Source: Eledone cirrhosa
Lineage: Eukaryota
Assembly (NCBI GenBank): GCA_964016885.1
Contig: OZ024742.1
Location: 316,634,001-316,698,000 of the forward strand
Direction: 5' to 3'
DNA: 64,000 nt
Part shown: positions 6,016 through 64,000 of the stretch, in pieces
How positions within the stretch are numbered: position 1 is the stretch's first letter
How the letters are laid out: every line of letters begins with the position of its first letter
Translations under genes and position numbers: made by a program
The notes under the pieces: generated by a model
What the model was told of the DNA's origin: nothing
The model's database searches: none
Seen by the model: the letters and a program-made list of their open reading frames with translations, nothing else

Positions 6016-6063
6016 GTGTATATAATATATAAGAACAAAAGATGGTTAAAAGAGTTCCATGTA

Positions 6064-6130
6064 TTTTATTATGCGCATTTCAAAAACAAATATCATCATG
6101 CAATAATATTTGTGTTTTCATCAGATAAAA
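6064..6130 (-). ncRNA. Minimal type I HHR of the PLE pLTR
   Basis: Reverse complement of 8661-8727. Confidence 0.8.
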
Positions 6131-6494
6131 CAGGAAGACATGATATGAAGGTGAAAAAACACTTGTGGATAGTGCAGTTTTAAATCAACATATGAAAAGT
6201 AGTTTTAGATTGATGTGTGATATTGGGAAACATATTTATTTTGAGGGGTGGGGGTGGGGTGGAGAGAATGAAATAGAGGAGGAGATGAGAGTAAAAAGTG
6301 GAGAGGGAGGAGTATAATGAGGAAGGATGAGATAGGAGGAGAGATGGGTGATAGAGAGAGATAGCTTTTATAACTGAGAAAGATATATTGTTTTACATAG
6401 AGAGGTTAAAAACCGTTGGAAGATAATGTATAAATTAAAAGAATTTGAAAATTAACGAAGAGAAAAATAATGTAAAGTTAAGGTTTGTATATTG

Positions 6495-6720
6495 AGGGGT
6501 TTAATAATATGTGCGATGAAAAGAAAATGTTAATATGTATTAAGAATAATATTTAAGGGTTTAATAACATGTGCGATGAAAAGAAAATGTTAATATGTAT
6601 TAAGCATAATATTTAAGGGTTTAATAACATGTGCGATGGAAAAGAAAAATTAATATGTATTAAGAATGATATTAAGGGTTTAATATGTGCGATGGAAAGA
6701 AAATGTTGATATGTATTATT
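6495..6720. repeat. About 58-bp tandem repeat x4 in the PLE 3' UTR (mirrored at about 8070-8300)
   Basis: Unit GGGTTTAATAACATGTGCGATGAAAAGAAAATGTTAATATGTATTAAG repeated. Confidence 0.85.
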
Positions 6721-7129
6721 AAAAGGAATAACAGGTAATTTAAGTAAGGATATATTGTGAGATGAGCATGAATGAGTTAGATGAAAGGGAGAAAAAATAA
6801 TGAATTGAGGATGAATAATCTAACGTCAAAAAAATGTTTGTTTACGAAGGATTTTTACAAGGTGATATAGAGTAAGAATGTATTGTATTATGTAATAATT
6901 GATTCTATGTTAGGCAACAGTAAGAAAAGGTACAGATTAGGGGTTAGACATTAAAAGAAAAAAGAGAAGAAAGGGAAGTGATAAATATGATCGATATATA
7001 GAATGAGTAACAAGTATTATAGAATGTATAATAACCTTTGAAATAAGGTAGAAAGATGGGTATATTTTTAAAGAAGTGTATATATATATATGTGCCTTTG
7101 AGAAAAAGATTCTAAATTGATAAAGAATA

Positions 7130-7503
7130 TTAGCTGTATACTTTGTGGAATGTTTTGTGGAATTTATGCAAGCAGATAGAAAACAAGTCAGTGCGTCTAT
7201 TTATTATAGAATCTAAATTAGATATAATGGTAAATTTTTCATTTAGACAGAGATTGCAAATTTTGGATAGAGAACTGTTCAAGTATTGAGACGCAGAAGA
7301 AACCTTCTTCCAAAAGATGCTATATTTAATATTTTTGTCTTTCAAGGACCATATGAGTTCTGAGAGAGCCGTGTTGGTTCTTTTAAGTTTGTATTTAAAA
7401 GACGAATGATGGTTATAAAGACGAGCTTTAAAATAGGTGGAAGTGGAGCCAAAATAGGTGAAGGAATTGGTGTCAGTTATAACTTTACATTGGTAAATTA
7501 AGT
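7130..7503 (-). pseudogene. PLE GIY-YIG endonuclease C-terminal remnant (Hydra-like type)
   Basis: LIYQCKV..TYFGSTST.FKARLYNH..TALSELIWSLKD..W..CNLCLNEK..NRRTDLFSICLHK; same motif set as 14875-16308. Confidence 0.8.
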
Positions 7504-8660
7504 TAAAAAAACTTAATTTGCAATCTCTGTCTAAATGAAAAATTTACCATTATATCTAATTTAGATTCTATAATAAATTAAGTTAAAAAAACTTAATTTA
7601 CGAATGTAAAGTTATAACTGACACCAATTCCACAAAACATTCCAAAAAGTACACAGCTAATATTCTTTATCAATTTAGAATCTTTTTCTCAAAGGCACAT
7701 ATATATATATATACACTTCTTTAAAAATATACCCATCTTTCTACCTTATTTCAAAGGTTATTATACATTCTATAATACTTGTTACTCATTCTATATATCG
7801 ATCATATTTATCACTTCCCTTTCTTCTCTTTTTTCTTTTAATGTCTAACCCCTAATCTGTACCTTTTCTTACTGTTGCCTAACATAGAATCAATTATTAC
7901 ATAATACAATACATTCTTACTCTATATCACCTTGTAAAAATCCTTCGTAAACAAACATTTTTTTGACGTTAGATTATTCATCCTTATTATTTTTTTTCTC
8001 CCTTTCATCTAACTCATTCATGCTCATCTCACAATATATCCTTACTTAAATTACCTGTTATTCCTTTTAATAATACATATCAATATTTTCTTTCCATCGC
8101 ACATATTATTAAACCCTTAATATCATTCTAAATACATATTAACTTTTTCTTTTCCATCGCACATGTTATTAAACCCTTAAATATTATTCTTAATACATAT
8201 TAACATTTTCTTTTCATCGCACATGTTATTAAACCCTTAAATATTATTCTTAATACATATTAACATTTTCTTTTCATCGCACATATTATTAAACCCCTCA
8301 ATATACAAACCTTAACTTTACATTATTTTTCTCTTCGTTAATTTTCAAATTCTTTTAATTTATACATTATCTTCCAACGTTTTCAACCTCTCTATGTAAA
8401 ACAATATATCTTTCTCAGTTATAAAAGCTATCTCTCTCTCTCTCTCTATCACCCATCTCTCCTCCTATCTCATCCTTCCTCATTATACTCCTCCCTCTCC
8501 ACTTTTTACTCTCATCTCCTCCTCTTTTTCATCCTCTCCCCCCCCCTCAAAATAAATATTTTTCCCAATATCACACATCAATCTAAAACTACTTTTCATA
8601 TGTTGATTTAAAACTGCACTATCCACAAGTGTTTTTTAACCTTCATATCATGTCTTCCTG

Positions 8661-8727
8661 TTTTATCTGATGAAAACACAAATATTATTGCATGATAATA
8701 TTTGTTTTTGAAATGCGCATAATAAAA
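8661..8727 (+). ncRNA. Minimal type I HHR of the PLE pLTR
   Basis: Stem I TTTTAT/ATAAAA; CTGATGA 8667-8673; hairpin stem II (CAAATATTAT..ATAATATTTG); GAAA 8710-8713; palindromic ATGCGCAT; ATA triplet. Confidence 0.8.
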
Positions 8728-8854
8728 TACATGGAACTCTTCTAACCATCTTTTGTTCTTATATATTATGTATACTCCAGTCCTACAAACTGTAGAGTGC
8801 TTCTTATCCGATATCTGCATTGCTTTATTGTACTACAATAAAACTCACCTCCTA

Positions 8855-11220: not shown

Positions 11221-13155
11221 AAGAGAGTATTGAAGTTTGCTTGAAGCATTGTGGAATAATAAGTAAATATCTTTAAGTCGTTTGGAAGCCTCGACAATGC
11301 AAATGGGTAAATCTCCGGGTAACAAGAATCGGTGGTGGAGAGAGAGATGTAAGTGGGTGTACGTTGAGATGCGTGGTGTGTATAAGATGTGTAAGATGTG
11401 TACAAGAATGAAGGGAAGAGTATAAAGGATAAAATAAAAATAACAACACAGAGAGAGTTACCTTGGGAGAGAATTAATAGTCCCTATATATTTCGGATTC
11501 ACATCCATCAACTGGGGATTTTTTCTGGGTTGGAGGAAAGGTTGTCTGTCGGACAGGTGCGAAACGCGTCCTCCGCTGTTTGTTGTTTTGAATATCTGAG
11601 GTATTCGGCAGAGCGCGCGTGCGCGTGAAATGGGGTCGGTCGGGCAGAGGTCAGCGACCGAATGAGGGAGTGGGGTGGCGCTAGCTGTCAGTCCATTCTC
11701 TGCCTGCTTGTTTAGTGTTACTGTGTGTGTGTGTGGGTGTGTTGTTGTCTCGCTTGAGTGTGTGTGTGTGTGTGCGTGTGTTGTTGCCTTGTTCCTCTGT
11801 ATTGGCGGTGTAGTATGTTCGTATGGTGGAATGCTACTGTGTGTGTGTGCGTGTGTGTGTAGTTGTCTCGTTTGTGTGTGTGTGTATGTGTGTGTGCGTG
11901 TGTTGTGTGTTGCTGCATCGTTTGTTAACTTAAACCAGCCATCTCATTTCGCTTCTCTCTGATCGGTTGTTTATTTGCGGTTGCAGGCGTTTGATAAAAA
12001 GCGCTTCCTTGATAAGTAACGTGCCGACGTTTCTTTCAGTCGCTAGAATTGTGACAATGGGCCTTCCGTCTTTGTTTCCGCATTTGTCTATGTCTTTCCG
12101 GAAAGACGAGGCCCTGGTTTTAGTGTGTTCTTTGATCCGGATGTGCAAAAGTCGGATTGTGCTACCTATGTAGTATTGGTTGCACCTGTCACATTCTATC
12201 TTATACACGACGTATGTGCGTAGGCAACAGTTCGCATGGCGTATCGGGCAGTCTCTGAGGGAGCATGCGTCAGTAGATTTCCCGGGTTTCCTGGAGAGGC
12301 ATCTTCGCAGGGAGGGGCCCGAGTGGGCCAGGTGGATGTCGAGGCCCTCCCTCCATATAGCCTTGCGGATAGCGTTGGTGGTTCTCGCCCAGGTGTGGCA
12401 TTTTAAGGAAGCACTTGCCTTGGGTGCCTCTCTGTCCTTTGTGTCAGGTGTCTCCTATTCTGTCTGTGATCGAGGTAGGGTACTCGTTCGTCTCCAGCAC
12501 CTCGAGGAATCGCTTGGTATGAGTGACACCACTCGCGGGATCGCTGCATTTGTTTTTGATTTGCGCGACCTCGTTCGTGATGTATCCTCTTTTGGCACTG
12601 TTAGGGAGGGCGTACACGCACACACATACAGTAGCATTCCACCATACCAACATCCTACACCGCCAATACAGAGGAACAAGGCAACAACACACGCACACAC
12701 ACACACACACTCAAGCGTGACAACAACACACGCACACACACAGTAACATTTAACAAACAGGCAGAGAATGGACTGACAGCTAGCGCCACCCCACTCCCTC
12801 ATTAGGCCGCTGACCTCTGCCCGACCGACCCCATTTCACGCGCACACGCGCTCTGCCGAATACCTCAGATATTCAAAACAACAAACAGCGGAGGACGCGT
12901 TTCGCACCTGTCCGACAGACAAACTTTCCCCCACCCCGGAAAAAAACCCCATTTGATGGATGTGAATCCGAAATATATAGGGACTATTAAATCTCTCTCA
13001 AGGTAACTCTTTCTTCTGTTGTTATTTTTATTTTATCCTTTATACTCTTCCCTAGATTCTTCTACACATCTTACACATCTTATACACACCACGCATCTCA
13101 ACGTACACCCACTTACATCTCTCTCTCCACCACCGGATCTTGTTACCCGGAGATT

Positions 13156-13250: not shown

Positions 13251-13281
<31 letters not shown>

Positions 13282-13417
13282 GCAAAGTTTTATTTAAATT
13301 GTTGGGTTACAACGAGTAAATATTTATAACTGATATAAAAGCACTCAACAAGTATTTGGAGTATATTTACGATATTAAATAAATGGAAACTATATTTATA
13401 AAACCATATTTATTTCA

Positions 13418-13472
13418 TTATATATATTTCAGGGATATCATATTAAAAATATGGTATGCCTTCTTCAGACAA
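13418..13472 (-). ncRNA. Minimal type I HHR of the PLE pLTR
   Basis: Reverse complement of 18064-18118. Confidence 0.75.
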
Positions 13473-13732
13473 AATACAATATAAACAGTTTTATAAATAG
13501 ATAGATTTGACATACCTTACAACTTCAACTTCCATTTAAAAAGTTGATTTGGTAGTGAAAAATGTTAGGGACAGTTATAAAAAGAAAGAAAGAAAAAAAG
13601 CGAAGAAAAAGAAGAAATGCATGCAACTAAATAGAGAGAGATAGATATAGAGAGATATATAGAGAGAAGAAATTCATGTAAAGAAACAGAGAGAGATAGA
13701 TAGAGAGAGAAAAAACACAGAGGGAGATAGAT

Positions 13733-13764
<32 letters not shown>

Positions 13765-14874
13765 AAAAAATAGAGAGAGATAGATATGGATAGAGATAGA
13801 GAGAAAGAAAATAGGTAGTTGGGCACCAGTTGAATGACGTATCAATGATATATTTATTTATCTATTTATTTATTTATTTAGTTCTAGTATTAAGGTAGAG
13901 AGAGATATATGTGGTTAGGAGAGAAAACAGCCGTTACATAGAGAGAAAAGAAAAATATCCAGATATAAACGAGGCAGATTTAAAACATTATGTTTCATCA
14001 ATGTAAAAATATCAATTCGTATGAATTAGGTATTATAATGTAAATATCAGTATTCATGAATGAGACACGTATCAATAATGTGTGAAAAATAATGATCATA
14101 TGTCTAGTTTAAAATTGCTAGGTTTATATCAGAGTTGAGTTAAAAAACTGAGATAATAAACTGAGATAAACAACTTTTAAAAAAAATTGAAATACATAAG
14201 TATATATGCACTTTCATGAAAAAAGAAAAAGAAAAAGAAAATAGAAGGTTATCCCAGATTCGATACTATAGACTTCCATGTGAATTTACGTGATCAACTC
14301 TGCAAATTCCTATTTCACATGAAAACATTCTCATTGTGCTATAAAAATTCTAGTATACATATATGTGTACATACACACAAATATATATAGAATCTACATT
14401 AATTTTAACAATACTATTCTTGTCTTTACTCTACATGATTATCGTTCAAGCATAAATAGACAACAGATATCAATATATCAATAAAAATATCAAAAAATTA
14501 AAAAATATTAAAAATAAAACACAGTATGCCTCGCAAATCAACCACAGAGATCAACCCTTCAAAATTAATTGACAATATATTGCCAAGTTCATAATAAGCA
14601 TCAGAATCAAAAGCAAACAAAACCAAAATTATTTACCTAATCCTGTCTAGCAGAAATCATTCCAAAAGTTTAGGATACCCATTTGATTTACAGATGGTCT
14701 TATATTTATTATAGAAGTTTATCTAGTGTAAAATGTATTCGATATATTTGGAGCATCAGCTTTTAGGGTAGTTTAATTATTCATGAAGAATGTTTAAAAA
14801 AAAAAAAAAAAAAAAAAGAAATCGAAAGATTTATCGGCGAGTTTCATAAATAATTATAAATCCAAGTAAATATA

Positions 14875-16308
14875 CTACATTTTAAATTTATATTTATATT
14901 TAAAAGTTGAGTTCAATCTATGTCTGCAGCAACTGAATAAATTTGTCCGTAAATTAAGGGAATTTTTAGATTTTAGTATAAAGAATATCTCCTCCGCGCA
15001 GAGGTCACATGTCTCAGAGGATGAATTAAAAGGAATCCCTCTTGAGACTATATTCCAATCCGTCGAATATCCAACGTTATCATGCTTAAGTTGCCAGAGT
15101 AAGCCTGATAGTGGTGTTGAAGATTTTTTGCTTGGATCTGTGAAAGAATTCTTGTGGTTATTATAGCGAAGTTTAAATTCTGTCGAGGTGGAACCAACAT
15201 AGTTAAAAGAATTTAAGTCCGTTTTAACATTACAGTTGTATATTATATTTTTAACTAAGCAATTGTTATTTAACGGACATTTAGATCTATCTCTACAGTT
15301 ACATTTGTTTACTTGGATATTATTTATGCTATTATCGGTATTTTGGCTAGGTTTTAAATTCCTATTATTTATTCTATTAATATTTTGTGCTAAATTTTTG
15401 GTGGATGAGTAGGTTAATTTTATAGTATGTCTATTGAAAATTGAGTGATACCTATGTGTTCTAGGGAAGCGATTATCAAGAGCATTAAAAAATAGTTTAG
15501 CGATGTGGGTTTTAATGTTTAGTGAGAAAGGGGGGGCAAACCATATTATATTCCTAGTTCTATTTCTTTTTTGGCTTTTGGAATTATTGTAATGCTTTCT
15601 ATTATAGTTGTTAAAGTTGTTGCCGTAATTAAAATTGTTGTTATTTTGGTTAGTTTGTCTATTATTATCTATGTACATAATTTTATCACTATATCCTGCC
15701 CTAGCTAACGCTTCATTGTAATACTGGGCTTTTTCGTCGAAAATCTTTTTATTAGATGAGATTCTAGAGATACGTTTTTGAACAGAGTTCACTATAGTAT
15801 TTTTAACAGATCTGGGGTGGTTAGAGTTAAAACTGACATAGTTTAAGTTTTCATTCAACCTGTGAAATGGATAGTGAAGACATGTGTTGAGATTTAATGT
15901 TACATCTAGGAAATCGACTATTCTATGGTTATTCTCAATTTCTATTTTTAGATTAAAGTAATTAAAAAATTGTGTAATTTGTTTTCTTTTTCTATCTAGT
16001 TCAGAGTTATTATTTTCAATAAGTAAAAGCATGTCATCTCTATATAAACCTCCGGTAGCACCGGGTATTTTCCTATGCAGCGAATTGATTATAAATAGGC
16101 CCACAAGGTCAGTTACCTGAGCTGAGTCGGATGATCCCATAGTAATGTCGAAATTGTTATCTCTATCTGCTCTGGTCCATAGTTGGTCATTAAATTCTAT
16201 CAATGTTTTCCTAGCCGATAATATAATGTGCATTTCATTGCTAGTTAGGTCTGTATGTTTGAATGCGTAATTTAGTGCCTTATTTAGTAGATTAGGGGTA
16301 ATAGATAA
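14875..16308 (-). CDS. 5'-truncated, uninterrupted PLE polyprotein: RT (motifs B-E, thumb), linker Zn finger, GIY-YIG endonuclease; Hydra-like type
   Basis: TMGSSDSAQVTDLVG, GLYRDD, VDFLDVTLNL, SNHP, IIWFAPPFS, CNCRDRSKCPLNNNC, IIY..YVGSTST.FK.RYNNH, CDLCAEE, CRHR; frame stays open upstream of the M up to the inversion point. Confidence 0.9.
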   Translation of the reverse strand, partial: LSITPNLLNKALNYAFKHTDLTSNEMHIILSARKTLIEFNDQLWTRADRDNNFDITMGSSDSAQVTDLVGLFIINSLHRKIPGATGGLYRDDMLLLIENNNSELDRKRKQITQFFNYFNLKIEIENNHRIVDFLDVTLNLNTCLHYPFHRLNENLNYVSFNSNHPRSVKNTIVNSVQKRISRISSNKKIFDEKAQYYNEALARAGYSDKIMYIDNNRQTNQNNNNFNYGNNFNNYNRKHYNNSKSQKRNRTRNIIWFAPPFSLNIKTHIAKLFFNALDNRFPRTHRYHSIFNRHTIKLTYSSTKNLAQNINRINNRNLKPSQNTDNSINNIQVNKCNCRDRSKCPLNNNCLVKNIIYNCNVKTDLNSFNYVGSTSTEFKLRYNNHKNSFTDPSKKSSTPLSGLLWQLKHDNVGYSTDWNIVSRGIPFNSSSETCDLCAEEIFFILKSKNSLNLRTNLFSCCRHRLNSTFKYKYKFKM

Positions 16309-17769
16309 AACGGACTTAAATTCTTTTAACTATGTTGGTTCCACCTCGACAGAATTTAAACTTCGCTATAATAACCACAAGAATTCTTTCACAGATCCAA
16401 GCAAAAAATCTTCAACATCACTATCAGGCTTACTCTGGCAACTTAAGCATGATAACGTTGGATATTCGACGGCTTGGAATATAGTCTCAAGAGGGATTCC
16501 TTTTAATTCATCCTCTGAGACATGTGACCTCTGCGCGCAGGAGATATTCTTTATACTAAAATCTAAAAATTCCCTTAATTTACGGACAAATTTATTCAGT
16601 TGCTGCAGACATAGATTGAACTCAACTTTTAAATATAAATATAAATTTAAAATGTAGTATATTTACTTTGATTTATAATTATTTATGAAACTCGCCGATA
16701 AATCTTTCGATTTCTTTTTATTTTTTTAATTTTTTTTTAAACATTCTTCATGAATAATTAAACTACCCTAAAAGCTGATGCTCCAAATATATCGAATAAA
16801 TTTTACACTAGATAAACTTCTATAATAAATATAAGACCATCTGTAGATCAAATGGGTATCCTAAACTTTTAGAATGATTTCTGCTAGACAGGATTTGGTA
16901 AATAATTTTGGTTTTGTTTGCTTTTGATTCTGATGCTTATTATGAACTTGGCAATATATTGTCAATTAATTTTGAAGGGTTGATCTCTGTGGTTGATTTG
17001 CGGGGCATACTGTTTTTTATTTTTAATATTTTTTAATTTTTTAATATTTTTATTGATATATTGATATCTGTTGTCTATTTATGCTTGAACGATAATCATG
17101 TAGAGTAAAGACAAGAATAGTATTGTTAAAATTAATGTAGATTCTATATATATTTGTGTGTATGTACACATATATGTATACTAAAATTTTTATAGCACAA
17201 TGAGAATGTTTTCATGTGAAATAGGAATTTGCAGAGTTGATCACGTAAATTCACATGGAAGTCTATAGTATCAAATCTGGGATAACCTTCTATTTTCTTT
17301 TTCTTTTTCTTTTTTCATGAAAGTGCATATATACTTATGTATTTCAATTTTTTTTTAAAGTTGTTTATCTCAGTTTTTTATTTCAGTTTTTTAACTCAAC
17401 TCTGATATAAACCTAGCAATTTTAAACTAGACATATGATCATTATTTTTCACACATTATTGATACGTGTCTCATTCATGAATACTGATATTTACATTATA
17501 ATACCTAATTCATACGAATTGATATTTTTACATTGATGAAACATAATGTTTTAAATCTGCCTCGTTTATATCTGGATATTTTTCTTTTCTCTCTATGTAA
17601 CGGCTGTTTTCTCTCCTAACCACATATATCTCTCTCTACCTTAATACTAGAACTAAATAAATAAATAAATAAATAAATAAATATATCATTGATACGTCAT
17701 TCAACTGGTGCCCAACTACCTATTTTCTTTCTCTCTATCTCTATCTATATCTATCTCTCTCTATTTGTT

Positions 17770-17801
<32 letters not shown>

Positions 17802-18063
17802 CTATCTATCTCCCTCTGTGTTTTTTCTCTCTCTATCTATCTCTCTCTGTTTCTTTACATGAATTTCTTCTCTCTATCTATCTCTCTATATCTATCTCTC
17901 TCTATTTAGTTGCATGCATTTCTTCTTTTTCTTCGCTTTTTTTCTTTCTTTCTTTTTATAACTGTCCCTAACATTTTTCACTACCAAATCAACTTTTTAA
18001 ATGGAAGTTGAAGTTGTAAGGTATGTCAAATCTATCTATTTATAAAACTGTTTATATTGTATC

Positions 18064-18118
18064 TTGTCTGAAGAAGGCATACCATATTTTTAATATGATA
18101 TCCCTGAAATATATATAA
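18064..18118 (+). ncRNA. Minimal type I HHR of the PLE pLTR
   Basis: CTGAAGA 18068-18074; stem II AGG.ATA.CATATT/AATATG.TAT.CCT; GAAA 18106-18109; TATA stem III; AATAAA downstream; stem I weak. Confidence 0.75.
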
Positions 18119-18165
18119 TGAAATAAATATGGTTTTATAAATATAGTTTCCATTTATTTGATATC

Positions 18166-18214
<49 letters not shown>

Positions 18215-28054: not shown

Positions 28055-31000
28055 GAATATTACTCCAGCATTAACTAAACTAATTGGAACCATTGAAACA
28101 GCAATGCTCCAAAAGCTGGAACAACCATTACAACCCAATCTACGAGATGTTCACTCAGTAAAAAACACCCTAATCAATATATGGACTCAAAAGCTCACAG
28201 CCCACATATTCGCCTTTAGGAATCTCCTAAAAAATAATGGCAAGGCAGACATATATGAAAAGTGGCTAAACTCTACCCCAATCATCCACCCCAAAAAACT
28301 CCAAATAAAACCCATCCGAATGTACCAGAAAATCAACAAAAACTTAGGGAAAAGATGGCGTTAGAAAAGTTTAAAATAGAAATAAAACTGTTGCGGTTAA
28401 AAGCCAACTCCAACGAAGATAAGTTCAAGTCACTTAAACAACAGATGGAAACAGAAATCACAAGGCACTCTGAAGGCCTACTCTATGAAAAAAACTTAAA
28501 ACATTGCAAAGAAAATTGTGTGGATTAAGAACTGACATCCCTCCAGCGATGGGAAAAAAACGCCACCTGGTTCAACAACTACAAAATGGATTTCAAAAAT
28601 GAACAACATACAGGTAACCCATTTTAAAAACAAACTAAAACTCACACACCACATGCAAAACAAATAACAAAAAAAGTAACAAAACGTCCAACATACCCCC
28701 AGCAAAACTATGACGATAATCCCAGAACCCATAGACAAAACTATAACCCTACTAACAAAACCCGAATGTCCCCCAACACAAGACAGGACCCGATCCGCAG
28801 ATCACAACCCACACAAAACCAATTCCAAAACCGTTGACCCCAACCCACACAGAACCTGTTCCAAAATCGTAGATCCCAACCCAAACAAAAGAACAAAATC
28901 TACAACCCGGACTATCAACAAACCTAACCTCAATATGTCCGAAACTTGTATACAAGACCACACAACAACAGAGGAAAAGCCATTAGATATTAAAATACCC
29001 ATGAAAAAAAAATTCAGAAAAATCATTTTTTAGACCAAGGCTACAGGACCCACGACACCCGGTGGCACAAACCGATTTTGAAAAACCGAAAATAATCAAG
29101 CTTTCAAATACAAATTTCTCAGCCCAACAAATTAAAATTCTCTCCAAAGGACTGAAATTCACACCAACACCACAATACTCTAACCACAATGAGATAAATG
29201 ACGATATCTCACACTTCTGTAGAAAATTACGTCTCACAGAGGAATCTTTTGACAAGGAGAATAACGACCAATCAATTGTACGGAATAAAAGCAGCTATAA
29301 TCCAACAAAAGGTAGAAACAGAGTTCTGGACAAATTTTGTGACCACATAGCAACTTTCCCATACCATGAACTACCGCAATCTAAACCCAAACCCAACACG
29401 AGTCGAAGGGAATGGAAAATTATCCATGAAAAAACAATATGGACATAATAATTAAGGAAGCGGACAAGAGAAGTACTGTCGTCATTATGGATGTCGTCAT
29501 TATGGATTCTCTCTTACAAAATACTAACTACCATGAAAGAGTAAAAACTAGAAGCAATAAAAAACGATGACCAGATTAAACACATTCATTTGTCGATATC
29601 AGGGAGATTAACTAAAAGGAACGCGATTATTTGACACATTTTGAATACAAAACCAGCAACCTTTACGGACTCCCGAAGATCCACAAGTGTAAAATAATTA
29701 ACGATGCCTGTAAACGATCCACCTCAACCTGCGTGAACACACAATACCCCACAGACCTTAAATTAAGACCAATTGTAGCGGGCCCACAATGTGAAACACA
29801 CAGACTAAGCAACTTTATAGACATACTACTAAAACCAATTCTGAACCACATACCAAGCCTTGTAAGAGACGATCTGAACCTCTTAAACCACCTCCCAAAA
29901 AATGTCAATAATGACACTATTATTGTGTCTTTCGATGTAGTGAATCTCTACACAACGATCCCACACGAATACGGAGTAGAGACAATAGGATTATGGCTAG
30001 AGATATATCCCAATGAGATACCTGACAGAATAGAAAAAAGCTTCATCAACGAGGGATTAATATTTATTTTACAGAACAACTTTTTTGATTTCGATGGCAG
30101 TACTTGCAAGCAAATATCGGGGACTGCGATGGGTACAAAACCGCTCCAACTTATGCCAACTTAGTCATGGCATACTTGGAAGTCAAGATATATGAACAGT
30201 CCAAATCAAAATACGGATTGAACTTCCACAAATATTTATCAGAGAACTGGAAACGCTACTTGGATGATTGTCTCATTCTTTGGTCTCACACACTCGACCA
30301 ACTAAATGATTTCAAAAATAAAATTAACGGCATCAATAACCACATCCAATTTACAATGGAATACAGCCAAGATTAACTCCCATTTTTTATGGACATCTTA
30401 ATCTTGAAAAAAGACACAAATATTGAAACTGACATGCACTACAAACCAACAGATTCCAAACAATATCTGCTATTCACCGCCAACCATCCAAAGCACACGA
30501 AGACGAACATCCCTTTTAACCTATCTAGAAGAATTTGCACAATTGTCTCCAATTATGAAACGCGAAATAAAAGACTTCAAGAATTAAATGAAATTCTACT
30601 CGAAAGACAGTACCCACCATTACTAATAAATAATGGAATAGAAAGGGCTAAAGCAATAGGCATTAATGAATTACGAAAACAGAAACAAATGCAAGATACG
30701 TCCAATATTCTATCATATATCTCAACACACAACCCAAGAAATGCGGAAGCTTACAACACTATTCACAAGAACATCCCACTATTGAAACAAGACCCAAGAA
30801 TGAAAAAAGCCCTTGAAACACACAAAAATAATCAAAAGCAAAAGACAACCGAATTCACTAAAAACATTACTCACCAATGTCAAATTACCTACCACAAACC
30901 CACAACCAACTGTCAAAAAATGTGGTCGCTCTAATTGTGGAACCTGCACTCACCTCATTGAAGGCAACACGTATACATTTCAATCAGGACAAAATTTTGC

Positions 31001-31316
31001 TGTAAAAAATCACTTCACTTGCTCATCAAAAAATCTACTTGATGCCATTAAAAGTAAAGGATGCAATGAAGATTATATAGGACAAACTAAACTCACACTC
31101 AGAAACAGAATGACAGTTCATCGCCAACAATTACAAGATCCAACCACGAGACAGATGCCACTAAGTGCATATCTAGACATATGCGCAAGTAATAAGAGAC
31201 AAAAATTCCAAGTCTTCCCATTTTATCTTTGCGCTGACAATACAACAGAACAAATACGAATAAATAAGGAAAATATGTTTATTCAAAAATATAGACCAGC
31301 ATTTAATATAGTTTAA
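28053..31316 (+). pseudogene. PLE RT-GIY-YIG polyprotein, multiply frameshifted
   Basis: ILSKGLKFTPTP; KEADK; LYGLPKIHK; RPIVAG; SFDVVNLYTTIPH; GTAMGTK/APTYANL; WKRYLDD; YKPTD..NHP; linker KCGRSNCGTC; YIGQT..RMTVH. Confidence 0.9.
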
Positions 31317-32764: not shown

Positions 32765-32915
32765 CTGATTCGGTTGTAAACAAACAGCCGTAACTCGCTC
32801 GGTATGCAAATGAGGCTACTCAGCCATTGTGTACTTAATAAAATACTATATATTTTCAACTGTTCAACATATTTGCAGCGGTATAGAGTCTTGATGAAGG
32901 TGATAGGCACCTTTT
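32765..32915 (+). mobile_element. Relic of the octamer/TATA/HHR retrozyme-like family
   Basis: TAACTCGCTCGGTATGCAAATGAGGCTACTCAGCC..TATATA..TTGATGA-AGGTG(ATAGG)CACCT aligns with 52746-52866; GAAA half is missing. Confidence 0.6.
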
Positions 32916-35349
32916 AGCTTTGGATTCCATTGATACTATCTATATATAAACATTTGTGATTTATATCCTATCGAATCCGGTGCTTCTAGACAACATATGT
33001 TTATTGTTTTCTAGCTTTTCTCTTCATTTCGAAAATTTTTATTAAAATGTTTATTAAACATGCTCTGGCATGAACTATTCGATTGAAGGCTAACTTTCAC
33101 TCTGGCTTAATTAAGGTTCTGTTGTAGATAGTTCCATATTATCGGAATCACGTATCTTGTTTGTAGCGTGTCTTAGCACGTCTTGTCTCTCCAACCCAGT
33201 GTTAAATTGTATCTATCATATTTTCTAAGTCACTAGATGTTTTGACCCACATAGTCGTTTCCTACTTTTATAACTCGGTATACAATGAACTATCATATCA
33301 GCCTAACATAGGCTGATATGATAGTTCATTGTTCCTAGTTTAATGCTACTTTATTCATGTGAGGTCGTTGTATACCTTAGGGATTTTCTCTTTTTTTCTG
33401 TAGTGGACTGTGCTTCATTTGTACTTCACCGTAGTGTGGGTTGTCTTGCACTACTTTGGTATAGCGTTTTACAAAGATTTTTCTCTTAAGTTTGATAATT
33501 GATTTTATGTGATTCATTTGTAAGGTTTAGAAATTCAATTTCCTTGATATACCTGAAGGGTTTAATATGGCAGTAAAGAAACCTTCTATAATATATAATT
33601 ATTCTGCTCTGTCCCTCTTTCTTTTAACATTTTTGTTTCTCTTCTTATTTTGATTTAGTCATACGTGTTGAGATTCTCAGTCGTTATCTGGCTTTGTTTG
33701 GTTAGGTTTCATTACCTAAACATTTCTCTCTTCATATCCTGAATATAAAGATTGTGAATATTGTGTTGCCCTCAATGCATGGTAAACAATAGGTATAGAA
33801 TATTTGGAAAATGTTAATTAATACACAAATGTAAACTAGAAATGTAAAAATCTTCTCATATCCCCAGTAAATATATTTCACGATAAATTCGGATGCCTAG
33901 AATAAAATACGTCATGAGATAAAATTACCATAAATATTAAAACCAAATTTGCTTTTGATTATGAAGAGAATATCATACACAATATTCAGACTAATATTTT
34001 AGTTAATGCAATTTTTGAGAATTTCTTACCATTTTACTTTTAAGTAGTTGAGGAAATAAAAAAAGAAGAAAAAAAGAAAAAACGAAAAAAAACAAAAACA
34101 AATGACATCTCGATCGTTTCTTTAACTCTAGACTTTGCTATTGACATATTCTTGGTTAGCAACTATCTTCGTCAGCCAACTATCGGTGTTCTTCACATGA
34201 TACCATCACTAGTATTCTGGAAAGTATAATCATCTCAATTGTCCTCTCTTTTAAGAGTTATACGATTCAATTAATATCTTAAATGATTTTACTTTTGCTT
34301 CTATAGTTTAATCCAGATGAGATCTAACTGAGAACACCTATGGCCAGATATAGAAGATCGCGCTTTACATAATGAATATCTATTGTATTCATTCCTTCTT
34401 CCTATTAAAGATACAGTACCTCCCTATCATGGGCTCTCAATATAACGTAGACATTATACCAATATGGCAAGACAAGCACCCCACAACTTAGACACTGACA
34501 GTATTTCAATGTAGCACAAATCTACAATGTCCTTTTTTTAATAAAAGCTAGTAGGGTATTAGTAGAAAGAGATATGACTGCTATTTCTAGCTTGTCAACT
34601 AACCACATAGTACCTTCCTTGTTAATCTTTTGATGCTTTGTTTAGGCGTCGTTCCTCCATAGGTGTTGTTAGTTCTTGCGCTATGTTAGTACGTTTAACA
34701 TCATTATAACATTATATATGTAGCCAATCAGAAATCCCTACTATAAGATCCGGTTCCATATCGTATTAGGAGAAAACATTTAAATATATAAAATAGACAA
34801 ACAAAAATAAAACCGTCTATCCGGCCATTAACAAATTATCCTATACTCAGCTACAGAAGAATTTGAAATGAAATATCATACTATAATAACTTAAATGTTG
34901 TGTCCCGGTTGGATGGCTAATGAAGCGTTTCTCACAAATGAGAATTTATGCCGAATTCATGAAAGGGTAAACGTAGTGAAACTAATTGTTTTCACTTCTT
35001 CATGTGATGTAGTTTGTTTGTGATAAGAGTAACAATTCATCCGATAATTTTATTAACATTGCATTTATTAGCATGTATATTAATATATAATCTCAGATTT
35101 TTAACCAGAAAAGTATTGCAGGAATGTAACAGACAATGTTTTGTTTTTATCAACATACATATAGATATTCCACTGAAAAGATAGACTTGTCAGTTCATTG
35201 TCATGGCATTCATCGGTGTTTTATTTTTCTAAAATTAAATAAGAATGTATATAGCCTACACACAGGAAACTGACAAACTTATTTAGAAGAAATATACTTT
35301 TCGGCTGCCATCAATTTGGATGAAGATATGTGATTATATTATATTAGAA

Positions 35350-38040: not shown

Positions 38041-38301
<261 letters not shown>

Positions 38302-38309
38302 ATATATAT

Positions 38310-38475
<166 letters not shown>

Positions 38476-38503: not shown

Positions 38504-42660
<4,157 letters not shown>

Positions 42661-43369: not shown

Positions 43370-43497
43370 GTATATATGTATATATATGTATATATATATA
43401 AGACTCCAGTTGCATTTTCGATTTCAACTCTTTTTCTTTATACTTTCACTCGTGTAGGACACCTCGGTTATTTTTCATTTTGTAAAAAAAACCTCAC

Positions 43498-43577
<80 letters not shown>

Positions 43578-43581
<4 letters not shown>

Positions 43582-45365
43582 ATAAGAACATCCCCACAAG
43601 AGAGCGCTAACAAGTTTGATTTAGAACGTAGCACAATGGAAAGCATCCAGCAGATAGCTAATTCCAGAGTAAAACTGTAACTATCGACTACCCTTCCAAA
43701 CACCCTAACAATAGACTACATGTATTAGACACGGAAGTCTGGATTAACACTATAGACGAGAGAGCCCAAATTCTCCACTCACACTATGCTAAACCCATGG
43801 GCTCCAAATACCTGATACTCAAAAACTCAGCAATGTATAGTAGTGCGAAGTTTAATATTCTGATCACAGACTTGGTACGAGTAATGAAGAACGTGTCCCG
43901 CATGTGCGACCCAACAGAAATGGAAAGACACATCCAACACTTCATCAACCGCATGCAGTTCTCTGGCTACAACCAAAGAGACAGAATTAGAGTATACGAA
44001 GGAACCATGGAGAAGTATAAGACCCTCATAGAACTGGACATGAAAAGAATTTGCCCATTATACAGGATGAAGAACGGGTCCCGCATGTGCGACCCAACAG
44101 AAATGGAAAGACACATCCAACACTTCATCAACCGCATGCAGTTCTCTGGCTACAACCAAAGAGACAGAATTAGAGTATACGAAGGAACCATGGAGAAGTA
44201 TAAGACCCTCATAGAACTGGACATGAAAAGAATTTGCCCATTATACAGGAGCAAATCATGGAATAGCTTACATAGGGCTAGACATAAGATAGGGAAAGCC
44301 ACCTCATGGTACGACAACCAGAGATACCAGAGTGTCATGTTTGTGGACGCTACCCCTGGATGGAAATTAGCTAACCAGTGTAGAAAGGCCCTGAGAAAGA
44401 CCCACTTAAAGATTAAGGTGGTAGAAAAGCCAGGAACCACGATAACATCCCTGATCAGCAAAACCTACCCTTTTAAGAAAATCCACTGTACTAATAGGAA
44501 ATGTATCATATGTAAAGTAAACCCCCGGATAAACTGTAAAACTAGAAACGTAGTCTATAGCATAAGATGTACAGAGGGTACTTGCAGAAACATGACAACA
44601 ACATACATAGGCGAGGCAGCTCGTAGCATAGGTGAAAGGATAGACTAACACTGGGGGGGGGGGGACTAAAAGGACGAAAAAACGGTTCAGTACTATACGA
44701 ACATTCCAGACACCAACACGACGGTAACATAGACAACATAGAAATTAGAATAATATCTAAACATAGAAATGACCCAGCAGATAGGTAAATCAGAGAGGCC
44801 AGTGAAATAGAACTTAGAAGGCCAAGGCTAAACAGAAAATATAAATGGAATAACAACAACACCCAAACAAACAAGACTGACCTAAGAGAAGTATAAATAA
44901 ATAAATAAATAGATAAATAAATAAATACATACACAAGCACAATAACAACAAACGCATATAAACACATACTAGTAAAGATAGAATACATTAACCAATACAC
45001 AGTCACCCAAACACGAACACACATCAAACAAAACACTATACACACACGCAAACGCGTGCGGAAAGAAGACAAAAAAATAAGAAAATAAATAAATATATAA
45101 ACAGACTAAATAAAGATGGCGTAGACATACAATTCAACGGGAGGAAACAATAGCACCACTGACGATGTTGCAGATGTGCAACGAAAGAACTTTGATAGAC
45201 TATATATATGTTTGTGTCTATATTGTCAATGGCAACATTGAGGACCGAATAAATTAAATTAACCGATATAAAAGACACAGAAGCGAAAACCAACCAAACA
45301 GTGAGTGTGTTCTGTTATTAATTCTGGCAATATTACACAAATATGAGCCTCCCCAAGTATAACAA
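43578..45365 (+). mobile_element. 5'-truncated PLE of another lineage (RT end, thumb, linker, GIY-YIG, 3' UTR, HHR)
   Basis: DYPSKHP..VLDTEVW..HYAKPMGS..SAM; MQFSGY; VMFVDATPG; CTNRKCIIC..CKTRNVVYSIRC..YIGE..RSIGER; stops after 44648. Confidence 0.8.
45155..45196 (+). ncRNA. Minimal type I HHR
   Basis: CTGACGA 45159-45165; T-GTTGCA(GATG)TGCAAC; GAAA 45183-45186; GAAC-TT; weak stem I. Confidence 0.6.
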
Positions 45366-51514: not shown

Positions 51515-51565
<51 letters not shown>

Positions 51566-51620
51566 AGTATGCATGTATACGTACATACATATATGTATAC
51601 AGACGTACAGTAGCATGCAC

Positions 51621-51655
<35 letters not shown>

Positions 51656-52094
51656 TACATATGCATACAGGTACACATACATATATGCACGTATCAGTTT
51701 AGCGGCGCTAACGTCGCTTTGTTCGTTTGTAAACAAACTGAACAGCCTGAATTTATGCCATACGGTGTTAAGGCAACCACGTCACCTTTTTGTTCAACAC
51801 TGACACAGGAACGATGTACTAGTTTCAAGCTTGTTAGCTATCATCAGCACCGTTTACCCATCTGCCAGATAGTTGAACGTTCGAAAGTATATACTTTCCT
51901 TATGAAAATTAACGGCTGAGCAGCCTAATTTGCATATTGAGTGAGTTAAATCGGTTAGGCATACCGAAAACGATAAATTGAAACAAAATGAAAACGAAAT
52001 TTCATTTCTCACTCTTAGTATGGCACTTACTTAAATGTAAGTATGCATGTATACGTACATACATATATGTATACAGACGTACAGTAGCATGCAC

Positions 52095-52129
<35 letters not shown>

Positions 52130-52365
52130 TACATATGCATACAGGTACACATACATATATGCACGTATCAGTTTAGCGGCGCTAACGTCGCTTTGTTCGT
52201 TTGTAAACAAACTGAACAGCCTGAATTTATGCCATACGGTGTTAAGGCAACCACGTCACCTTTTTGTTCAACACTGACACAGGAACGATGTACTAGTTTC
52301 AAGCTTGTTAGCTTTCATAAGGAAAGTATATACTTTCGAACGTTCAACTATCTGGCAGATGGGTA

Positions 52366-52410
52366 AACGGTGCTGATGATAGCTAACAAGCTTGAAACTA
52401 GTACATCGTT
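52366..52410 (+). ncRNA. Minimal type I HHR of the 474-bp unit
   Basis: AACGGTG-CTGATGA-T-AGCT(AACA)AGCT-T-GAAA-CTAG-TA-CATCGTT; 7-bp stem I; palindromic ACTAGT; GTA triplet. Confidence 0.85.
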
Positions 52411-52564
52411 CCTGTGTCAGTGTTGAACAAAAAGGTGACGTGGTTGCCTTAACACCGTATGGCATAAATTCAGGCTGTTCAGTTTGTTTACAAACGAACA
52501 AAGCGACGTTAGCGCCGCTAAACTGATACGTGCATATATGTATGTGTACCTGTATGCATATGTA

Positions 52565-52599
<35 letters not shown>

Positions 52600-52745
52600 G
52601 TGCATGCTACTGTACGTCTGTATACATATATGTATGTACGTATACATGCATACTTACATTTAAGTAAGTGCCATACTAAGAGTGAGAAATGAAATTTCGT
52701 TTTCATTTTGTTTCAATTTATCGTTTTCGGTATGCCTGACCGATT

Positions 52746-52806
52746 TAACTCACTCAATATGCAAATTAGGCTGCTCAGCCGTTAATTTTCATAAGGAAAG
52801 TATATA
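52746..52806 (+). promoter_or_regulatory. Putative octamer + TATA-like promoter of the 474-bp unit
   Basis: ATGCAAAT 52759-52766, TAATTTTCATA, TATATA 52801-52806; conserved in the 467-bp unit and partly in the 32.8-kb relic. Confidence 0.55.
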
Positions 52807-53040
52807 CTTTCGAACGTTCAACTATCTGGCAGATGGGTAAACGGTGCTGATGATAGCTAACAAGCTTGAAACTAGTACATCGTTCCTGTGTCAGTGTTGA
52901 ACAAAAAGGTGACGTGGTTGCCTTAACACCGTATGGCATAAATTCAGGCTGTTCAGTTTGTTTACAAACGAACAAAGCGACGTTAGCGCCGCTAAACTGA
53001 TACGTGCATATATGTATGTGTACCTGTATGCATATGTATA

Positions 53041-53086
<46 letters not shown>

Positions 53087-53199
53087 CATGCTACTGTACG
53101 TCTGTATACATATATGTATGTACGTATACATGCATACTTAAATTTAAGTAAGTGCCATACTAAGAGTGAGAAATGAAATTTCGTTTTCATTTTGTTTCA

Positions 53200-53288
<89 letters not shown>

Positions 53289-60001: not shown

Positions 60002-60241
<240 letters not shown>

Positions 60242-60530
60242 CAAATAACGAAACGAAATTAAATTTCGTTTCGTTTGTAACTCACTTTTGTATGACTGAC
60301 GCTTAAACAATTAAGTTAAAGATGTACATCCATATATGTATACTGAAATACTAGTATGTATATGAATACACACACGTATACATATGTAGATGTACCAAGT
60401 TTTTTCACTGGTCACTTTACTGTGAGTGGCCAGCTATTCTGTATGTAAACACACAGACAAACCGGTTTTTAGAGTCATACTGGTTTTTGAGGAAACACCT
60501 TTCCTCTATTCTCCAGAAAGCCAGACAAGG

Positions 60531-60575
60531 AATATTGAACTAGTTTCGTTGTTGTTACAACTCATCAGCAATATT
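60531..60575 (-). ncRNA. Minimal type I HHR of the 467-bp unit (also at 60998, 61465, 61932, 62399, 62866)
   Basis: Reverse complement of 63593-63637. Confidence 0.85.
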
Positions 60576-63425
60576 TACCTATCTTCCGGCCTCTCTAGAG
60601 AATCGTAAAAGCACATATCGTTATATGCTTTTTCTATGAAAATTAGTAGTGGGCAGACTAATTTGCATAGAGTGTGAGTAAGTACCGGTTCAACGGAGAC
60701 GATAAAAACAAATAACGAAACGAAATTAAATTTCGTTTCGTTTGTAACTCACTTTTGTATGACTGACGCTTAAACAATTAAGTTAAAGATGTACATCCAT
60801 ATATGTATACTGAAATACTAGTATGTATATGAATACACACACGTATACATATGTAGATGTACCAAGTTTTTTCACTGGTCACTTTACTGTGAGTGGCCAG
60901 CTATTCTGTATGTAAACACACAGACAAACCGGTTTTTAGAGTCATACTGGTTTTTGAGGAAACACCTTTCCTCTATTCTCCAGAAAGCCAGACAAGGAAT
61001 ATTGAACTAGTTTCGTTGTTGTTACAACTCATCAGCAATATTTACCTATCTTCCGGCCTCTCTAGAGAATCGTAAAAGCACATATCGTTATATGCTTTTT
61101 CTATGAAAATTAGTAGTGGGCAGACTAATTTGCATAGAGTGTGAGTAAGTACCGGTTCAACGGAGACGATAAAAACAAATAACGAAACGAAATTAAATTT
61201 CGTTTCGTTTGTAACTCACTTTTGTATGACTGACGCTTAAACAATTAAGTTAAAGATGTACATCCATATATGTATACTGAAATACTAGTATGTATATGAA
61301 TACACACACGTATACATATGTAGATGTACCAAGTTTTTTCACTGGTCACTTTACTGTGAGTGGCCAGCTATTCTGTATGTAAACACACAGACAAACCGGT
61401 TTTTAGAGTCATACTGGTTTTTGAGGAAACACCTTTCCTCTATTCTCCAGAAAGCCAGACAAGGAATATTGAACTAGTTTCGTTGTTGTTACAACTCATC
61501 AGCAATATTTACCTATCTTCCGGCCTCTCTAGAGAATCGTAAAAGCACATATCGTTATATGCTTTTTCTATGAAAATTAGTAGTGGGCAGACTAATTTGC
61601 ATAGAGTGTGAGTAAGTACCGGTTCAACGGAGACGATAAAAACAAATAACGAAACGAAATTAAATTTCGTTTCGTTTGTAACTCACTTTTGTATGACTGA
61701 CGCTTAAACAATTAAGTTAAAGATGTACATCCATATATGTATACTGAAATACTAGTATGTATATGAATACACACACGTATACATATGTAGATGTACCAAG
61801 TTTTTTCACTGGTCACTTTACTGTGAGTGGCCAGCTATTCTGTATGTAAACACACAGACAAACCGGTTTTTAGAGTCATACTGGTTTTTGAGGAAACACC
61901 TTTCCTCTATTCTCCAGAAAGCCAGACAAGGAATATTGAACTAGTTTCGTTGTTGTTACAACTCATCAGCAATATTTACCTATCTTCCGGCCTCTCTAGA
62001 GAATCGTAAAAGCACATATCGTTATATGCTTTTTCTATGAAAATTAGTAGTGGGCAGACTAATTTGCATAGAGTGTGAGTAAGTACCGGTTCAACGGAGA
62101 CGATAAAAACAAATAACGAAACGAAATTAAATTTCGTTTCGTTTGTAACTCACTTTTGTATGACTGACGCTTAAACAATTAAGTTAAAGATGTACATCCA
62201 TATATGTATACTGAAATACTAGTATGTATATGAATACACACACGTATACATATGTAGATGTACCAAGTTTTTTCACTGGTCACTTTACTGTGAGTGGCCA
62301 GCTATTCTGTATGTAAACACACAGACAAACCGGTTTTTAGAGTCATACTGGTTTTTGAGGAAACACCTTTCCTCTATTCTCCAGAAAGCCAGACAAGGAA
62401 TATTGAACTAGTTTCGTTGTTGTTACAACTCATCAGCAATATTTACCTATCTTCCGGCCTCTCTAGAGAATCGTAAAAGCACATATCGTTATATGCTTTT
62501 TCTATGAAAATTAGTAGTGGGCAGACTAATTTGCATAGAGTGTGAGTAAGTACCGGTTCAACGGAGACGATAAAAACAAATAACGAAACGAAATTAAATT
62601 TCGTTTCGTTTGTAACTCACTTTTGTATGACTGACGCTTAAACAATTAAGTTAAAGATGTACATCCATATATGTATACTGAAATACTAGTATGTATATGA
62701 ATACACACACGTATACATATGTAGATGTACCAAGTTTTTTCACTGGTCACTTTACTGTGAGTGGCCAGCTATTCTGTATGTAAACACACAGACAAACCGG
62801 TTTTTAGAGTCATACTGGTTTTTGAGGAAACACCTTTCCTCTATTCTCCAGAAAGCCAGACAAGGAATATTGAACTAGTTTCGTTGTTGTTACAACTCAT
62901 CAGCAATATTTACCTATCTTCCGGCCTCTCTAGAGAATCGTAAAAGCACATATCGTTATATGCTTTTTCTATGAAAATTAGTAGTGGGCAGACTAATTTG
63001 CATAGAGTGTGAGTAAGTACCGGTTCAACGGAGACGATAAAAACAAATAACGAAACGAAATTAAATTTCGTTTCGTTTGTAACTCACTTTTGTATGACTG
63101 ACGCTTAAACAATTAAGTTAAAGATGTACATCCATATATGTATACTGAAATACTAGTATGTATATGAATACACACACGTATACATATGTAGATGTACCAA
63201 GTTTTTTCACTGGTCACTTTACTGTGAGTGGCCAGCTATTCTGTATGTAAACACACAGACAAACCGGTTTTTAGAGTCATACTGGTTTTTGAGGAAACAC
63301 CTTTCCTCTATTCTCCAGAAAGCCAGACAAGGAATATTGAACTAGTTTCGTATTTCAGTATACATATATGGATGTACATCTTTAACTTAATTGTTTAAGC
63401 GTCAGTCATACAAAAGTGAGTTACA

Positions 63426-63464
63426 AACGAAACGAAATTTAATTTCGTTTCGTTATTTGTTTTT
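63426..63464 (+). terminator. Hairpin + T5, putative Pol III-type 3' end of the 467-bp unit RNA
   Basis: AACGAAACGAAATT-T-AATTTCGTTTCGTT then ATTTGTTTTT; first run of 4 or more T downstream of the HHR. Confidence 0.5.
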
Positions 63465-63486
63465 ATCGTCTCCGTTGAACCGGTAC

Positions 63487-63547
63487 TTACTCACACTCTA
63501 TGCAAATTAGTCTGCCCACTACTAATTTTCATAGAAAAAGCATATAA
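63487..63547 (+). promoter_or_regulatory. Putative octamer + TATA-like promoter of the 467-bp unit
   Basis: ACTCACACTCTATGCAAATTAGTCTGCCCA, TAATTTTCATA, CATATAA 63541-63547. Confidence 0.55.
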
Positions 63548-63592
63548 CGATATGTGCTTTTACGATTCTCTAGAGAGGCCGGAAGATAGGTA

Positions 63593-63637
63593 AATATTGC
63601 TGATGAGTTGTAACAACAACGAAACTAGTTCAATATT
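63593..63637 (+). ncRNA. Minimal type I HHR of the 467-bp unit
   Basis: AATATTG-CTGATGA-GTTG(TAACAA)CAAC-GAAA-CTAG-TT-CAATATT; 7-bp stem I; palindromic AACTAGTT; GTT triplet. Confidence 0.85.
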
Positions 63638-64000
63638 TCTTGTCTGGCTTTCTGGAGAATAGAGGAAAGGTGTTTCCTCAAAAACCAGTATGACTCTAAA
63701 AACCGGTTTGTCTGTGTGTTTACATACAGAATAGCTGGCCACTCACAGTAAAGTGACCAGTGAAAAAACTTGGTACATCTACATATGTATACGTGTGTGT
63801 ATTCATATACATACTAGTATTTCAGTATACATATATGGATGTACATCTTTAACTTAATTGTTTAAGCGTCAGTCATACAAAAGTGAGTTACAAACGAAAC
63901 GAAATTTAATTTCGTTTCGTTATTTGTTTTTATCGTCTCCGTTGAACCGGTACTTACTCACACTCTATGCAAATTAGTCTGCCCACTACTAATTTTCATA

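Follow-up and report, generated by a model that had tools for sequence, protein, structure and literature searches.

A 474-bp hammerhead-bearing unit between (TA)n tracts of the Eledone cirrhosa genome, a probable non-LTR retrozyme with a predicted snRNA-type promoter and a candidate Penelope-like helper

How animal retrozymes are transcribed and what moves them are open questions in the literature, as is the way in which Penelope-like elements (PLEs) form their tail and inverted arm (papers are cited here by accession or DOI). Both questions bear on a short repeat with hammerhead ribozymes (HHRs) in a window of 64,000 nucleotides from E. cirrhosa (contig OZ024742.1, positions 316,634,001 to 316,698,000; coordinates below are those of the window). 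Positions 51561-53205 proved to be a single insertion of a 474-bp non-coding unit, lying between a left (TA)n target tract, read from the sequence at 51523..51560, and a right one at 53206..53255. The left arm, of about 1.6 units, read outward on the minus strand (51561..52313), with its 3' end at site 1 (unit position 256, ending in ACTTACAT) and its 5' end within stem II of an HHR; the right arm, of about 1.9 units, read outward on the plus strand (52313..53205), from unit position 384 to a 3' end at site 2 (unit position 318, ending in CAATTTAT). Since the minus-strand left arm met the plus-strand right arm head-to-head, both 3' ends pointed outward, and both lay in (TA)n. The arms measured 758 and 893 bp, and the inversion junction between them (52313..52318) shared 1 nt exactly and 5/6 nt imperfectly. 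Measured between HHR cuts, the unit was 474 bp long on either arm, and copies within the insertion were a few substitutions apart, plus differences in the length of a TA tract. An earlier note, made from the letters alone, had described near-identical tandem copies of a non-coding unit with one HHR each, a central inversion and (TA)n flanks, and all of this held, with the inversion at 52313 and (TA)n on both sides; the word array was right as to the tandem arrangement, although its extent was just ~3.5 units (1.6 + 1.9).

One full monomer, cut to cut, occupied 52404..52877 on the plus strand and corresponds to the predicted linear monomer or circle. It contained an alternating purine-pyrimidine, TA-rich tract of variable length (52526..52659, plus strand), which was also a minor zone of arm ends, and a tail (52650..52727, plus strand) comprising a hairpin with site 1 in its loop (52659-52662), a second hairpin, site 2 (52721) and three T4 runs. 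No RT or GIY-YIG ORF was found in the unit, whose frames were only low-complexity ones of 101-149 aa crossing the TA tracts; it was short, non-coding and devoid of LTR, PBS and PPT, as is expected of a non-LTR retrozyme.

Type I hammerheads were located at 52366..52410 (plus strand, cut after 52403, with stem I extending to ~52353-52421), at 52840..52884 (plus strand, cut after 52877) and at 51810..51854 (minus strand, cut after 51817). Their CTGATGA cores began at 52373(+), 52847(+) and 51847(-), the right arm thus carrying two in tandem, and a truncated fourth HHR lay at the junction. The cut predicted in the earlier note, after GUA at 52403, coincided with ours, and its 7-bp stem I was recovered as AACGGTG/CATCGTT, with one G.U among the seven pairs, as was stem III, the palindrome ACTAGT. 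Stem II did pair as proposed (AGCT/AGCT, loop AACA), but in this family (family A) a U.U mismatch occupied its base; for this reason, and since the HHR scores below the Rfam cut-offs, cleavage may be weak; eight of nine predicted Xenopus retrozymes failed to cleave in vitro (10.64898/2026.07.22.740005).

Searches of the window with Rfam gave 0 matches at the gathering score and, at a loose E-value, just TA-driven miRNA noise and Hammerhead_HH9 at 18.5 bits (cut-off 52). A chance resemblance to the hammerhead was nevertheless excluded by 10,198 exact genome matches to a 39-nt family A core, against 0 for the control, together with the covariation of the stems. For the latter, 16 natural copies of families A, B, C and E were compared, three rows of family D being omitted because they were misaligned. 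The core was invariant in these copies, and 86.7% of 240 cells were paired, against 63.8+-2.0 in shuffled sets and 23-43% when partners were slid, in agreement with the covariation claimed between the two units in the earlier note; these counts are inflated by the relatedness of the copies. Both sides had changed in 10 of the 15 stem pairs, a measure that alone did not exceed the shuffles (96/500). Stem III varied among families and stayed palindromic (ACTAGT, ATGCAT, ACATGT and ACAGCTGT), which fits cleavage as a dimer, as was demonstrated for axolotl retrozymes (PMC7229834).

The unit was neither unique nor isolated. Exact-pattern matches were counted over the 3.0-Gb assembly: besides the family A core, the core of family B had 5,123 matches, and the octamer box described below, followed 55-85 nt later by an HHR core, had 20,523 matches against 29 in the control, a variant box, ATG(C/G)(A/T)AATGAG, adding a further 1,759 from families C, D and E. 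Family B, with a unit of 467 bp, was present in the window as a two-arm insertion at 60235..64000, with its junction near 63351; the array runs ~4.6 kb beyond the window, and 16 complete units of it were read. The two units aligned end to end in 310 of 508 columns (61%), with a score of 341 against 143+-13 after shuffling; the first 122 nt alone scored 73 (best of 300 shuffles, 54), and body and tail each aligned above all 300 shuffles. The 474- and 467-bp units are accordingly read from this alignment as diverged sisters, homologous over their whole length and beyond a shared order of modules, so that the earlier view of a sister array stands; the homology of the two bodies had been missed in it. 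Family C, the third, was represented at 32804..32920 (plus strand) by a degenerate copy in which the same module of promoter boxes recurred. Elsewhere, family C relics recurred at ~50-105-kb steps (G000:C1:143.3-143.8 Mb; L225, L226), which is probably a segmental tandem duplication.

In order to see how the copies end, 67 stretches were mapped by k-mers; they were the first listed places, in the first 70 Mb of contig C1, and had been picked for an intact core or promoter. The 3' flank was readable for 132 arm segments, of which 60 ended at site 2 (unit positions 299-320, mostly 318), and 46 at site 1 (246-262, mostly 256-259); a further 15 lay in the internal TA tract and the remaining 11 at other positions. 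The two sites were ~60 nt apart and neither was at the HHR cut, and 102 of the 106 site-1 and site-2 ends abutted TA repeats, which bore out the expectation of dispersed copies with (TA)n junctions. The 5' ends, in turn, were scattered over the unit (1/126 near the cut site and 3/126 near the predicted transcription start). A head-to-head junction was present in 44 of the 67 stretches, with overlaps mostly of 1-8 nt. Among 45 junctions, 30 joined a site-1 arm to a site-2 arm, none joined two site-1 or two site-2 arms, 9 involved the TA tract and 6 had an unresolved or other end; were the two sites chosen freely, the chance of 30:0 would be about one in a billion. The rule was kept in 8 of 8 resolved two-arm loci of family B, whose sites were at 228-234 and 303 (10 further two-arm loci were unresolved, none with two site-2 ends), and site 1 sat in a hairpin loop in both families.

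Partial tandems, an inverted 5'-truncated arm and a one-sided tail, the traits of elements mobilised by PLEs, were thus all found, and the pairing of site 1 with site 2 is the Penelope-like 'tail' as a strict rule. It is likely that the two fixed arm ends arise because the cut strands of the DNA both serve a Penelope-type enzyme in copying one RNA. Tandem arrays, inverted arms and microsatellite flanks would also be produced by a satellite, fold-back or rolling-circle element propagated as DNA, with the hammerhead as a passenger; that explanation is largely refuted by the fixed 3' ends, scattered 5' ends and strict site pairing, and conflicts as well with the conserved polarity of ribozyme and promoter and with the PLE fusions described below, and we regard it as very improbable.

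The nature of the copied RNA was approached through the cut site. The 32 nt just past the cut had 13,326 exact copies, and 12,650 of these (95%) continued 9 nt across the cut, which indicates that the template was a circle or an uncleaved RNA and rules out the cleaved linear monomer. Units of one array had a median difference of 1, against 14 between arrays; in 17 of 26 loci no arm was closer than the partner arm; and long family B arrays had private variants fixed on both arms and polymorphisms common to none (two variants in all 19 units of L212/213 and two in all 6 of L209). Within-array uniformity, closeness of the partner arm and private variants on both arms together favour a circle. Variant patterns of period 3 and period 2 were also seen in family B arrays (L212:1261-5464 and L214:1293-2700), the period-3 pattern of L212 on just one arm, and both arms of L067 contained a variant unit with a 458-bp unit next after it. 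These periodic patterns misfit a single monomer circle and may reflect multimeric circles or a subsequent higher-order duplication; together with the position-shared variant of L067 they speak for templates that were multimeric or for unequal exchange at a later time.

The same element with a PLE helper may alternatively have been copied from a long uncleaved read-through multimer, the HHR being weak or acting late and the arrays lengthening by unequal exchange. Such a template equally predicts the continuity over the cut site, and it agrees with the patterns of L067 and L212, with the U.U at the base of stem II and with the finding that HHR cleavage is not needed for PLE insertion in vitro, where HHR mutants still insert (PMC11167929). 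It explains less simply than a circle the private variants that are fixed array-wide and never shared between arrays, and against it also speak the invariant core, the stems that covary across families and the longer arrays, among the matches listed, of family B, where stem II has a canonical G-C. We consider the uncleaved multimer unlikely and retain the circle as the preferred template.

Transcription of the unit was addressed by comparison with snRNA genes of the host, which were extracted and confirmed by Rfam. The earlier note had pointed to octamer and TATA-like boxes in both units, and these boxes do match host snRNA promoters. The octamer box ATGCAAATTAG lay at 52759..52769 (plus strand), and corresponds to a box that U6, U6atac and MRP genes of the host have at -76 to -78; a PSE-like TCAGCC followed at 52775..52780 (plus strand), resembling the TCAGT that the U1 and U2 genes have at -56 to -58; and a TATA-like box was placed 26 nt past the start of the PSE (52801..52806, plus strand), predicting an initiation at 52831. 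This putative start, TATA+30, falls on GC|A, the beginning of the 5' arm of the HHR. A second complete octamer-PSE-TATA module was found on the minus strand at 51888..51935.

In the host, the 11-mer ATG(C/G)(A/T)AAT(T/G)AG at -76 to -78, with a TATA box at -30, was present in 6 of 9 distinct U6 upstream regions, in 1 of 8 U6atac loci, the other 7 of which look like retrocopies, and in the sole MRP gene. The upstream regions of U1 (11) and U2 (6) lacked the 11-mer proximally and had, in its stead, TCAG at -56 to -58 together with a TATA-like box close to -30. The host U1, U2 and U6 genes were arranged in tandem arrays (snRNA loci L071-L090, L091-L102, L143-L155 and L193). Thirteen retrozyme rows from five families, selected for the 11-mer and not independent since the families share ancestry, were set against these genes. 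A (T/C)CA(G/C)(C/T) motif stood 16 nt past the 11-mer in 10 of the 13, and the boxes were kept while the spacer between them had diverged among families. The distance from octamer to TATA was 40-45 nt (42-43 in 11 of 13), against 46-48 in the host Pol III genes, so that the type 3 Pol III box was present without its spacing; the distance from PSE to TATA was 26-27 nt, the spacing of host U1 and U2, to which a proximal octamer is foreign. The PSE-TATA spacing differs by 4 bp between snRNA genes of the Pol II class and those of the Pol III class. As judged from these boxes, the predicted promoter is a hybrid that is kept in five families: its octamer is that of Pol III genes, and its PSE and the distance from there to the TATA box are of the Pol II kind. 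It matches neither host class fully. The unit is likely to be transcribed from this snRNA-type promoter of its own.

The choice of polymerase appeared almost balanced, with a slight inclination to Pol II. Pol II would pass T4 runs, and the arrays require such read-through; on the other side, the first sense-strand T4 run was at unit position 297 in both A and B, and the lack of any before it speaks for Pol III. In insects, the sequence of the PSE helps to set the choice (PMC1761439). If the promoter were of type 3 Pol III, the main product would be an RNA of ~370 nt ending at the T runs by site 2, and arrays would come from leaky read-through. This reading is suited by the octamer box, which is that of host U6, U6atac and MRP, by its position 16 nt ahead of the PSE, likewise theirs, and by the T4-free stretch; however, the PSE sequence and its distance to the TATA box are those of U1 and U2, read-through would have to pass four T4 runs and yet most copies keep promoter and HHR joined, and the 5' ends were not piled up at the predicted start. 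We rate this Pol III scheme as possible, though doubtful.

With regard to the enzyme, four of the 67 stretches joined a family A arm to Hydra-type PLE sequence without a TA spacer, colinearly in L031 and L034 (the latter with 4-nt microhomology) and head-to-head in L138 and L064. The partners in L031, L034 and L138 carried a CxCX5C linker, which defines the Hydra clade, all described families of which insert into (TA)n (10.1101/2021.04.23.441226); in L064 the partner was a 3' end that bore a hammerhead and was 79% like the corresponding end of the Hydra element in the window. Template switching explains the fusions, as could later deletions between neighbours. Three further joins involved short TA-targeted elements (L022, L046, L024), and two short, abundant, TA-flanked fold-back elements, X and Y (38220-38320 and ~43380-43526), formed head-to-head hybrids with the retrozyme in these loci. 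In L167:1-1630 (minus strand), a relic of family E directly abutted a Poseidon-like RT truncated at its 5' end; this was a single case and was not used as evidence.

The window held PLE insertions of its own. A Hydra-clade one at 13281-18167 had two arms head-to-head in (TA)n, the same build as the retrozyme, with a 484-aa RT/EN fragment bearing CxCX5C, hammerheads at 13468- and 18068+ and a tail ~100 nt longer on one arm. A second Hydra-type family (6030-8760, hammerheads at 6124- and 8667+) had the same two-arm build; this family was the fusion partner in L031 and L034. Pfam recognised GIY-YIG in 2 of 8 PLE fragments of the window and nothing in the 484-aa Hydra-like fragment, which Atlas grouped with RT/GIY-YIG clusters. 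Other PLE-like ORF fragments lay at 11930-12454, 29005-31316 and 43662-44648 (GIY-YIG matches in two), presumably of the clades Poseidon, Neptune and Nematis. A TA-flanked two-arm element at 38650-42602, in which no ORF of at least 100 aa was found, had hammerheads at 38894-, 41799- and 42497+ and a stem III palindrome ATGATCAT.

These data make a Hydra-clade PLE the rather probable helper, as far as fusions and target can tell. The helper may otherwise be another (TA)n-targeting retroelement, either a Naiad, Neptune or Nematis PLE or a LINE. The 102 of 106 site ends at TA repeats suit Hydra and Naiad clades alike, Naiads also preferring (TA)n (10.1101/2021.04.23.441226), and several PLE clades were present in the window; moreover, no blastn similarity was found between the 474-bp unit and the PLE ends of the window, no sequence was shared with Hydra tails, and folding revealed no common tail structure, the two tails folding differently. 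Against such a helper, all four family A fusions with coding-element sequence were of Hydra type, and (TA)n is the target of every Hydra family described. We consider another helper improbable.

Taken together, the insertion is probably a non-autonomous non-LTR retrozyme with an snRNA-type promoter of its own, a predicted self-cleavage and circle, and insertion into (TA)n by a PLE. Transcription would start at about TATA+30 and read through into the next unit; two hammerheads, probably dimerised via the palindromic stem III, would excise a monomer carrying the next promoter, which a host ligase would close (PMC7229834). A PLE endonuclease would then nick both (TA)n strands, one 3' end priming at site 2 and the other at site 1, each by AT microhomology; arm ends at both sites were observed. 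Both cDNAs would go past cut site and promoter again and again, about ten times at most as seen in the copies, before ending at scattered points, and short microhomology would link them head-to-head, as the junctions show; the new array would again hold the promoter and tandem HHRs. The fuller picture, of a genome-encoded RNA circle with a hybrid snRNA promoter copied from two sites at once by a dimeric Hydra-clade Penelope enzyme, with one site for each nicked DNA strand and both copies running around the circle, is offered tentatively, its parts together being less probable than not. If it is true, the tail and the inverted arm of PLEs would in general stem from this strict pairing of site 1 with site 2, and thousands of insertions would record it. 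With a 474-nt substrate, two mapped priming sites, a candidate enzyme and a predicted start base, each step is directly testable, and the promoter grammar of the host snRNA genes, a by-product, supplies U6 promoters for this lineage.

The element class itself is already known. Relative to the portions of the literature compared, what is new is the strict one-site-per-arm rule, the predicted hybrid promoter in five families and the fusions naming a Hydra-clade helper. No earlier description of the hybrid promoter or of the site-pairing rule was found in the titles, abstracts and text passages searched, and the text of PMC6962438 and PMC5680766 adds nothing on promoter or site pairing. Newt satellite 2 (Coats, in 1994), an HHR repeat, is a precedent for the promoter, and the schistosome Sm-alpha (Ferbeyre, in 1998), another HHR repeat, is likewise among the closest systems.

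By its sequence features, the element at 51561-53205 has every character of a non-LTR retrozyme (PMC7229834; 10.64898/2026.07.22.740005): like those described in animals, it is a non-coding tandem unit with one type I HHR, dispersed in thousands of copies and co-occurring with PLEs, with a weak stem III that implies dimer cleavage; its 474 bp fall within the 51-972 bp range of retrozymes (10.64898/2026.07.22.740005), and it has the U.U at the base of stem II in common with axolotl HHR_Amex2. Unlike in the available descriptions of animal retrozymes, a predicted promoter, fixed priming sites and an inverted two-arm build were recognised here. Retrozymes have been proposed to derive from the pseudo-LTR of PLEs, and 24 of 57 Xenopus families match Repbase elements (10.64898/2026.07.22.740005), whereas here no match to a PLE pLTR was found among the PLE ends of the window.

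Rfam found no tRNA-like part in the unit, which sets it apart in the comparison with Sm-alpha and newt satellite 2. Both of these reportedly carry their own internal promoter, and the present unit, with its predicted one, resembles them in this. For newt satellite 2 the promoter is described as a Pol II one of snRNA type (PMC2220036); unlike it, the one predicted here combines features of the host's Pol III snRNA genes with those of its Pol II ones and extends to at least five HHR families.

Published accounts of PLEs describe copies in partial tandem, one that is inverted and truncated at its 5' end, a tail at a single end and insertion into (TA)n (10.1101/2021.04.23.441226). In vitro, a PLE protein for which a dimer is predicted cuts both strands and initiates at two neighbouring positions inside the RNA (PMC11167929). 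The unit shares the former set with Hydra-clade PLEs and, with these and the Poseidon PAc (PMC11167929), an HHR upstream of two initiation sites, the first in a stem-loop. It differs from the PLEs so described in lacking an ORF, in a tail of ~60-75 nt instead of 30-40, in priming by AT microhomology and in the strict pairing of one site per arm, counted here. In L1 twin priming, two target ends prime and the products join head-to-head with microhomology. The build of the present insertions is similar in both respects; unlike in twin priming, however, the two arms cover the same sequence, for up to many units, and the second priming site is fixed.
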